Assembly (NCBI GenBank): GCA_004022145.1
Contig: RCNU01000001.1
Source: Paecilomyces variotii
Taxonomy: Eukaryota
Length of the DNA: 64,000 nt
Strand: one strand, 5' to 3'
In this document: positions 564 through 2,582 of the stretch, one piece after another
How positions within the stretch are numbered: position 1 is the stretch's first letter
Layout: the number at the start of each line of letters is the position of its first letter
Notes under the pieces: model-generated
Seen by the model: only the letters and a program-made list of their open reading frames with translations
Told to the model about the DNA's origin: nothing
Database searches by the model: none
Position numbers and translations under genes: made by a program

Positions 564-2582
564 ATGTCTTCTGACTCTGACACTCCCATCCACCTGCACG
601 CGGAGCTTCTGCCCAATATTCGACAGCTCACCTTCTACGTTTCTCTTCCTGCAGGTAGCTATATAAGTCAGGATGGTGGCACGCTCAAGCCAGAGATCTC
701 GCTGTCCGAGTCGCGGCGCGCAGTCACAGTGTCCGTCGGGGGAGAAATGGAGACAATGAAGCTTCCCGCGAGGGTCAGCGAGAGTTCTCGATCAGGCCTG
801 CGGTTTCCGGCACATGCTTTCTCGGGAAAACCCGCGGCTATTGATGGCACGAACAGGATGGAATTCTCATTCCGTATGCAGGTGGATAAGGACGAAGTTC
901 CTGGTTTGACAAAGGATGAATTCGTGGATGACTTTATCCCCTGGACGGCAGCGGACATGTCTACATCTGCCCTTGTGCGGTGTCGCGAGTGCAGTGCAGT
1001 GATCTTGGACCCCGGAGAACATACTGAAGGATGGACATGGAAAGATCTTCCTAGTGGGAACTGGGCTGAAATGATGGACTTTTGGCACTGTCACAAGCCA
1101 GATCCACATGAAGGTCATGACCACAAGTCAATAGAGGATTCTAATGCAGTCCTGAAAGGCTATGGAGCCGCGAACCAGATCTCAGCGAGCCCTGGGACGG
1201 TTCTCGTTGATGTTGCTTCATTCCTAGTTGCTGAAGTGGATTGTAATGGTCTGAGAAAGGTAAGAGAAAGGTACCCAGTTGACCATTGTCCTTCACTTCT
1301 ATGGGTCCTCCATGTTCCGTGTACTATGATACCTGAATCTATAACCATGTCATATAGCGCTGCTTGCCGTATTCCGCGTTACATCAAAACTTCTCTGCTT
1401 CCACTATCATACCATGGGCAACAAGAAGGAGGCCTCCTCCACTTCCATGATCTGGCCTCCGATACAATTGCCCGAAATCAATCAATCCATAAATATTCTC
1501 GTTCCAGGTACATCACATCTGTCACAATTTCGAGGTGAGTAGCTGTTGCGAACCACTGGCGGAGTATCCTCTTTGCGGAGATGGATTTCCTCCTTTGGTC
1601 TCTCTGCAGCTTCACGCCTCAGAGATTGTGATGGATTGTTCCTATGGATCGAGTATTTACCGCCTCATCTCTTTCACTGTTGGATTTCTTCTTTTCACAA
1701 CCTGCCCAGAGACATGGGATCCACAGGATTAAGACGAGGTACATGAATGGGCCCGTTAGATGGACACCGCCGGTATATCTGATATAGTAATTATCTCAGC
1801 CATTGATATCTGCAATGAAATTCATGTTTGACTTTAGATCAACTTTGCTTTCCTACAGCTAGTCCATAGAAAGCTAACATTTTTATTTCATAATAGTCAC
1901 AAAATGAGCGTCTTCCGCACACTGGAAACGCTAGGACCCGAGTCTACGTAGAATGTGAAGCCTGTGGTGCAACAATAGGCACGGAAGACGTCACTGCTAA
2001 TGGCTGGAGACTTTTCAAAACATGTATAGCCGTGCAGCAAGAACCAACCTCGATCGCCCAGGAGGCGGGGTCTGAACCCTCAAATCTCGAAACATACCCG
2101 AAGGAGACGATAGTCGGCGCGCAGCTCCTAGAAATGATCGAAAGAGAAGGCGTAAGACGCTTCGTTATTCATTGCGGAGGAAATAACGGACACCTAGTAC
2201 GTTTCCTTCCCCCCCGATCTTCTAAACCAAATCAACACCCCCGGAGAATTACACAGCTAACACTTTCATTCTTTTCGATACAAAGCTCTGGATCTTCAAC
2301 CCAGACATTCGCTACTCCAGCATCAGTCCAAACCACAGCGTGACCTCACAGCGAGCAATGAAAGCATTCTTTCAACATATCTCGGACGTTGAAAAAATCC
2401 TCGAACCCGAACAAGGGAAGCCGGCATCAATGTCTTTGGAGGAGCTGTATCTTCCTCGGGATACTTATCAGGATATAGCTTCTACGCTAAATCGGAGTAA
2501 TGAGATGTTACCGGCTTCTGCTAGGAGTTTTCGTGAGTGGAAGGTCGGGTTCTTGAGTAGGTTGGATGGGAAGCACGCGTGA
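564..2582 (+). CDS. IPA1: HECT-like ubiquitin-conjugating enzyme E2-binding protein (Ipa1/UBE3D family), 3 exons
   Basis: Motif WKDLPSGNWAEMMDFWHCH, CxxC pairs (CREC, CEAC) and LWIFNPD. Intron 1260..1896 (GTAAGA...GCTAAC...TAG) joins in frame; a second short intron lies near 2197-2286. Confidence 0.88.
1416..1746 (+). ncRNA. Intronic box H/ACA guide RNA, snR81-like (predicted U2 snRNA pseudouridylation guide)
   Basis: Hairpin 1 has lower stem GGGCAA/TTGCCC and upper stem GGAGGCC/GGCCTCC around pocket AAGAA(1423-27)/GATAC(1461-65). H box AAATCA at 1475-80 lies 14 nt from the pocket top. A 3' hairpin 1663-1739 is followed by ACA at 1741-43 with the same 14-nt spacing. Confidence 0.8.

Follow-up and report, generated by a model that had tools for sequence, protein, structure and literature searches.

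We analysed a 64,000-nucleotide stretch of the Paecilomyces variotii genome (assembly GCA_004022145.1, contig RCNU01000001.1), hereafter the window, in which the first intron of a three-exon gene related to IPA1 and UBE3D holds a predicted box H/ACA RNA that would guide the modification of the U2 small nuclear RNA (snRNA). The original prediction of this RNA was made from the letters of the window without database searches. Compared with Pfam PF09814 (HECT_2), the host exons scored 171.7, 60.5 and 75.9 bits (cut-off 22) and covered profile positions 1-369, which places the gene in the HECT_2 family. Because the three exons match consecutive parts of the profile, intron 1 is without a hidden exon, and the limits and length given to it in the original prediction were borne out by the exon matches. 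Intron 2 is 89 nucleotides (nt) long. Yeast Ipa1 is a member of the same family. HECT_2 is also the family of human UBE3D, a stabiliser of the cleavage endonuclease CPSF73 (PMC11331416). The coordinates of all features are given in Table 1.

Table 1. Host gene and predicted RNA in window coordinates.
Feature	Start	End	Strand	Details
Exon 1, host gene (HECT_2, IPA1/UBE3D-like)	564	1259	+	Pfam HECT_2, E 2.9e-50, profile positions 1-194
Intron 1, host of the RNA	1260	1896	+	637 nt; GTAAGA donor, GCTAAC branch-like site at 1872-1877, TAG acceptor
Exon 2, host gene	1897	2196	+	HECT_2 profile positions 203-277
Exon 3, host gene, including stop codon	2286	2582	+	coding part 2286-2579, HECT_2 profile positions 285-369
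Predicted box H/ACA RNA	1416	1746	+	about 331 nt, base of 5' stem to ACA plus 3 nt
5' hairpin	1416	1473	+	lower stem GGGCAA 1416-1421 with TTGCCC 1468-1473; upper stem GGAGGCC 1428-1434 with GGCCTCC 1454-1460
5' pocket strand CAAGAA (C-AAGAA)	1422	1427	+	AAGAA predicted to pair with U2 U44-U48
3' pocket strand GATACAA (GATAC-AA)	1461	1467	+	GATAC predicted to pair with U2 G37-C41
H box AAATCA (ANANNA)	1475	1480	+	14 nt from upper stem
Middle domain, long imperfect hairpin	1490	1659	+	enlarged in the window and in relative L001
3' hairpin	1662	1740	+	lower stem 1662-1670/1732-1740; upper stem 1677-1688/1716-1726; pocket strands CTTTCA 1671-1676 (5') and GATTA 1727-1731 (3')
ACA box	1741	1743	+	14 nt (1727-1740) beyond upper stem of 3' hairpin

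The 5' hairpin is composed of a lower stem of 6 base pairs (bp) and an upper stem of 7 bp, and the two strands lying between them form a pocket with AAGAA on one side and GATAC on the other. The letters and the RNAfold structure agree with the original prediction in each of these elements, and the H box that it had placed 14 nt below the top of the pocket was found as well. The minimum-energy fold is exactly this hairpin (-24.1 kcal/mol, z-score -3.9), and none of 200 shuffled sequences was as stable. The window was also scanned for AAGAA and GATAC joined by a stem-loop, with a minimum of 5 bp in the upper and in the lower stem and with an H or ACA box following at 13-16 nt. The hairpin at 1416 was the single site in the 64 kb, and no such site was present in 200 simulated 64-kb sequences generated under a first-order Markov model. 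The 5' hairpin is not due to chance.

Relatives of the host gene were identified by a protein search with exon 1, which recovered 80 metagenome loci with a host-protein identity of 31-60%. A hidden Markov model (HMM) of the 5' hairpin, used with nhmmer, found the hairpin in 71 of the 80 loci, on the coding strand and shortly downstream of exon 1 within the same intron; one of the 71 is L069, whose contig stops within the hairpin region. The hairpin is thereby shared by many fungi that are only distantly related. For the covariation analysis identical rows were removed, leaving 54 distinct copies with the window among them. With the structure of the 5' hairpin imposed on this alignment, 88.0% of the cells were paired, compared with 76.4% in shuffled alignments (reached by 0 of 500) and with 25-50% in a control in which the partners were moved by 1-3 columns. 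Eight of the 13 pairs changed on both sides, and cells of this kind numbered 100 where 37.5 were expected (0 of 500 shuffles); two rows, L006 and L008, are off by one column in the alignment and count against the structure in these figures. The pocket itself is nearly invariant: its 5' strand contains AGAA in all 54 copies and AAGAA in 49, and its 3' strand reads GATAC in 53 copies and GATAT in one. The first and third positions of the H box are A in every copy, and the spacing between the upper stem and the box is 14 nt in 53 copies and 15 nt in the remaining one. Since the stems vary freely while the antisense letters of the pocket stay fixed, the hairpin carries the signature of a guide RNA. 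The covariation check on orthologous introns that the original prediction had suggested therefore found covarying stems with a conserved pocket and H box, and the lack of conservation that it had named as telling against the RNA was not seen in these 54 copies.

Among the nine loci without a match to the HMM, four contigs (L046, L058, L067 and L070) end within about 60 nt of the exon. Four others (L032, L034, L059 and L060) display, by eye, a variant of the 5' hairpin in which either the top of the pocket contains one more nucleotide or GATAC is replaced by TATAC; these variants would leave three U2 nucleotides unpaired instead of two.

In the usual geometry of H/ACA guides, the 3' strand of the pocket pairs with the substrate on the 5' side of the target and the 5' strand pairs on its 3' side. 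It follows that GAUAC would pair with G37-C41 and AAGAA with U44-U48 of U2, leaving U42 and G43 unpaired (yeast numbering). The U2 letters were taken from nt 31-78 of the yeast RNA (PMC4712673), in which U42-G43 is flanked by GUAGUAUC and UUCUUUU, and the same 17 letters are present in the intron-U2 snRNA mimetic of PMC12342898. With these letters, the geometry that the original prediction had proposed for U42-G43 holds in all 54 copies: 32 have 5+5 contiguous pairs, 18 have 6+5 and 4 have 4+7, so that every copy offers the 10-11 contiguous pairs compatible with a guide for pseudouridine (Psi) at position 42 and exceeds the experimental minimum of 8 pairs (PMC6049503). A change in the four copies with 4+7 pairs (L005-L008) bears on the identity of the target. 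There the 5' strand reads CAGAA or TAGAA and loses one pair, and GATACTA in place of GATACAA adds two pairs with U2; as this change restores pairing specifically with U2, we count it against a target other than U2. A motif search for U2 itself, which allowed one mismatch in the window, found no U2 gene in the window, in the 80 loci or in the genome contigs searched.

Folding of the intron gave three hairpins, namely the 5' hairpin, a long imperfect hairpin in the middle and a third hairpin directly followed by ACA. The hairpin-hinge-hairpin-tail order of box H/ACA guide RNAs is thus present, with stems backed by covariation and an additional hairpin in between, and the distance from upper stem to box is 14 nt for both pockets of the window, within the 14-16 nt expected. 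An HMM of the 3' hairpin matched 42 loci and the window; after removal of duplicates and of one locus whose contig ends early (L077), 33 distinct copies were kept. The ACA right after the hairpin is invariant in all 33. In the same copies the lower stem is 93% paired, with five of five pairs changed on both sides, and the whole tested 3' structure has 80.5% of its cells paired compared with 60.1% in shuffles (0 of 500). RNAalifold on the MAFFT alignment recovered the lower stem alone, and the upper stem given in Table 1 was read by eye. In an unsystematic look, loci without a match to this HMM often displayed a hairpin followed by ACA. Two other ACA triplets, at 1697 and 1712, near the ends of the RNA-library contigs described below, were rejected as the box because they are not conserved in L001.

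The ends of the RNA are predicted ones, set at the base of the 5' stem and at 3 nt past the ACA. With these ends the RNA spans 200-239 nt in most relatives, compared with about 330 nt in the window and in L001, its closest relative, the middle domain being responsible for the difference. The size of about 330 nt put forward in the original prediction agrees with the position of the conserved ACA. Judging from its predicted fold, the 3' hairpin is shaped like a second, less conserved pseudouridylation pocket and is a candidate for one: the letters of its 3' strand are GATTA in 13 and GTTTA in 7 of the 33 copies. Conceivable targets for this pocket are stem-loop IIa of U2, the 3' region of U6, 5.8S ribosomal RNA (rRNA) and large-subunit rRNA. 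The fit of U6 and large-subunit rRNA was poor after the C-G pair that closes the upper stem had been placed. A literature text search with strings of fungal U2 stem-loop IIa returned nothing relevant.

Libraries from food-fermentation metatranscriptomes also contain this region: part of the intron is present in 19 of 24 rows, and 7 are recorded as RNA. Contigs from four runs of four different studies (X6, X8, X12 and X14) were placed on positions 300-2700. Run X12 has one contig of 314 letters on 1421-1719, the last eight aligned letters of which also fit the adapter that follows, so its insert probably ends near 1711; the single contig of run X14, 304 letters long, lies on 1422-1706 and has adapter behind it. 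Both contigs lie inside the predicted RNA, start one base apart and have no loose end, a weak hint of a discrete expressed RNA. In these two runs the exons and the remaining intron are without a contig, and the uncovered parts were not counted as evidence of a free RNA. The same side of the adapter follows the high-coordinate end in both, which is at most a hint of RNA from the + strand.

Run X6 has contigs on 550-824 and 993-1839. The second one extends across the unspliced border of exon 1 and intron 1, and its end, about 93 nt beyond the predicted 3' end of the RNA, consists of non-templated A's; this indicates polyadenylation inside intron 1 in a gene of a family tied to the cleavage of mRNA 3' ends. 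The contig of run X8, on 303-2351, is unspliced too, and none of the four runs showed a spliced joint. The X6 contig that reaches 1839 comes from a relative that is about 2-3% divergent from the window, with 18 differences in all, and only 2 of 331 positions differ in the predicted RNA compared with 11 of the 249 other intron positions covered (Fisher p 0.003).

The Rfam check suggested by the original prediction found no family at gathering score, snR81 included. A permissive search of 1200-1960 (E up to 10) gave five matches, the best of them to RF02667, the Drosophila small Cajal body-specific RNA (scaRNA) PsiU2-38.40.42, which is a guide for positions 38, 40 and 42 of U2. The score of this match is not significant, and its independent support for the U2 target lies in the identical pocket letters. 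In the RF02667 consensus the 5' pocket, ACAAGAA...GAUACAAU, is letter-identical to that of the window, and ACAAGAA...GAUACAA(U) occupies the same 5' hairpin in both RNAs. Positions 38 and 40 are served by the other pocket of the animal RNAs, whereas the second pocket of the window RNA reads differently, and the 3' hairpin of the RF02667 model was skipped in the alignment. In Xenopus SCARNA15, the activity on U2 Psi42 is tied to the 5'-terminal stem; SCARNA15 of most non-eutherian vertebrates is described as resembling the Drosophila triple guide, and yeast without snR81 regains Psi42 when SCARNA4 is supplied (PMC5733568).

Saccharomyces cerevisiae snR81 guides U2 Psi42 with its 5' pocket and U1051 of 25S rRNA with its 3' pocket. 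Like the window RNA, it is a box H/ACA RNA with the U2 pocket in the 5' hairpin and U42/G43 left unpaired (PMC6049503). The window RNA differs from it in having an extra middle hairpin and in residing inside an intron of an IPA1/UBE3D-like gene, and snR81 is not among the five permissive matches, so that homology to the snR81 family was not found. The original prediction had called the RNA snR81-like, and this stands for the predicted function, a pocket for U2 Psi42, and falls for sequence and structure; from the sequences no claim of descent from snR81 is possible. A fungal snoRNA (small nucleolar RNA) survey lists snR81 as Saccharomyces-only (PMC5824354), and no ortholog of it was found in the Candida parapsilosis group (PMC5033589).

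For Neurospora, a survey gives no predicted pseudouridine sites on snRNAs (PMC2780460). For Schizosaccharomyces pombe, no U2 guide is reported to have been known before 2017 (PMC5473140); the one found then, pugU2-43/44 (SPNCRNA.1709), is likewise a fungal H/ACA guide for the region of U2 that recognises the branch point, and was found by a sequence search after surveys had missed it. Unlike the window RNA, it targets the neighbouring uridines 43 and 44 through its 3' pocket and is not intronic but lies downstream of RPC10. S. pombe U2 also carries a Cm40-Psi41 dinucleotide, for which no guide was seen in the excerpted text (PMC5733568). Nc ACA9 of Neurospora crassa is an intron-encoded orphan H/ACA RNA of 201 nt, near the 200-239 nt of most relatives, and one of just two intronic H/ACA RNAs cloned from that species (PMC2780460). 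Nc ACA9 could be the ortholog of the window RNA, in which case the RNA would have been seen before and its U2 target would not. No description of the window RNA was found in the literature searched, which did not extend to the supplements of PMC2780460 and PMC5824354, and these may bear on its novelty.

We consider, with a probability of roughly 80%, that 1416-1746 on the + strand is an intron-borne box H/ACA guide RNA for a pseudouridine at the U42-equivalent of U2. The observation made in the original prediction is confirmed and its interpretation is supported. Beyond the anatomy, conservation, covariation and fit to U2 that we observed, processing would release the RNA from intron 1 of the IPA1/UBE3D-like pre-mRNA, the released RNA would assemble with the proteins Cbf5, Nhp2, Nop10 and Gar1, and in the catalytic step the 5' pocket would direct the U42-equivalent of U2 to pseudouridylation. 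The window RNA would thereby fill, in filamentous ascomycetes, the role that the 5' pocket of snR81 has in yeast and the Psi42 pocket of SCARNA15 in Xenopus.

Several points weigh against this assignment. The fold has three hairpins instead of the textbook two, and in some relatives the minimum-energy fold joins the stretch downstream of the H box to the strand upstream of the ACA, which leaves the fold proposed for the 3' domain provisional. The last position of the H box is A in 33 of the 54 copies, G in 18, C in two and a gap in one, while the next position is A in 53. At gathering scores, Rfam had no match in the window or in the 20 of the 80 loci that were submitted to it. RF02667 reached 22.3 bits compared with a cut-off of 88 (E 0.17) and aligned the 5' hairpin alone, which does not make the RNA a member of that family; relative L066 had no match to RF02667 and gave a chance match to a long non-coding RNA alone. 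On the side of the target, the U2 letters are those of yeast and of the mimetic in place of a U2 from a filamentous fungus, and no U2 pseudouridine map from a filamentous fungus was seen in the literature. The pairing of the window is 5+5 contiguous pairs compared with 7+7 for yeast snR81 (PMC6049503). Finally, the contigs were assembled from RNA libraries in which DNA may be present, and they show neither strand nor mature ends; those of X12 and X14 leave about 35-40 nt at the predicted 3' end uncovered and lack the first 5-6 nt of the 5' stem.

One rival explanation is a different target. A genuine box H/ACA RNA might act through its 5' pocket on rRNA, on another snRNA or on mRNA, or serve as a chaperone or in processing, the fit to U2 being coincidental. 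In its favour, the comparison covered U2 alone, 32 of the 54 copies offer just 5+5 contiguous pairs, and the 3' pocket is already without an assigned target. We nevertheless regard such a coincidence as unlikely, because the pocket letters are invariant down to 31% host-protein identity and match both yeast U2 and the mimetic, because the copies that have lost a pair on the other strand carry GATACTA where the rest have GATACAA and so regain pairing with U2 in particular, and because the same letters recur in the Rfam consensus of a U2 guide family from Drosophila.

The structure might instead work in cis on the host pre-mRNA, for example in the control of splicing or premature polyadenylation, perhaps by sequestering U2. 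The X6 contig, unspliced up to 1839 and ending in non-templated A's, would suit such an element, as would the tie of the host family to the 3'-end cleavage factor CPSF73 (PMC11331416) and the lack of a spliced joint in the four runs. An element acting in cis has no need, however, of H and ACA boxes at fixed 14-nt distances from two pocket hairpins, and GAUAC and AAGAA pair with U2 37-41 and 44-48, unlike a branch site, which pairs with the branch-site-binding letters. We find this explanation quite improbable. That the hairpin arose by chance in a long intron, or is a decayed, non-functional snoRNA copy, is scarcely credible and already disfavoured: a middle domain inflated to about 170 nt in the window and L001, possibly by an insertion into a compact RNA, and the absence of an Rfam family at threshold would be in keeping with it, but 0 of 200 simulated windows had such a hairpin, the window has every box, stem and pocket letter intact, the comparison with the close relative shows stronger conservation in the RNA than in the intron around it, and the region is present in the RNA libraries.

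A guide for the Psi42 site is already known among fungi, in Saccharomyces alone, and a guide RNA in intron 1 of the IPA1/UBE3D-like gene would extend a known mechanism and not add a new one. It would provide filamentous ascomycetes with a concrete and testable candidate for a Psi42 guide, with identical pocket letters serving fungi and insects, and the conserved host intron is a landmark by which the RNA could be annotated in other genomes. More speculative, and in our view doubtful, is an extended version in which both pockets act on U2, the 3' pocket fitting the junction between loop and 3' strand of stem-loop IIa, and in which residence in the host intron together with intronic polyadenylation would couple the output of a spliceosome-modifying RNA to the expression of a regulator of mRNA 3'-end cleavage.

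The middle domain of the predicted RNA is variable. It is about 60-100 nt long in most relatives and about 170 nt in the window and in L001 (about 1366-1535 of that locus). A repeat or transposon as the source of the 1490-1659 hairpin was rejected, the window being without a second copy. The sole differences between the window and the library contigs inside the predicted RNA, at 1490, 1631 and 1654, all fall in this long hairpin: 1490 and 1654 differ in all four runs, and 1631 differs in X8, X12 and X14 and not in X6. The two differences at the A/U-rich base of the hairpin break predicted pairs without compensation. RNAalifold on the MAFFT alignment of the middle domain recovered only four pairs, located at the apex. 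There (about 1565-1588), a pyrimidine-rich motif and a GAUGG-type motif are kept in all 30 relatives aligned, together with a short covarying stem that reads AUCC/GGAU in the window and ACCC/GGGU elsewhere.

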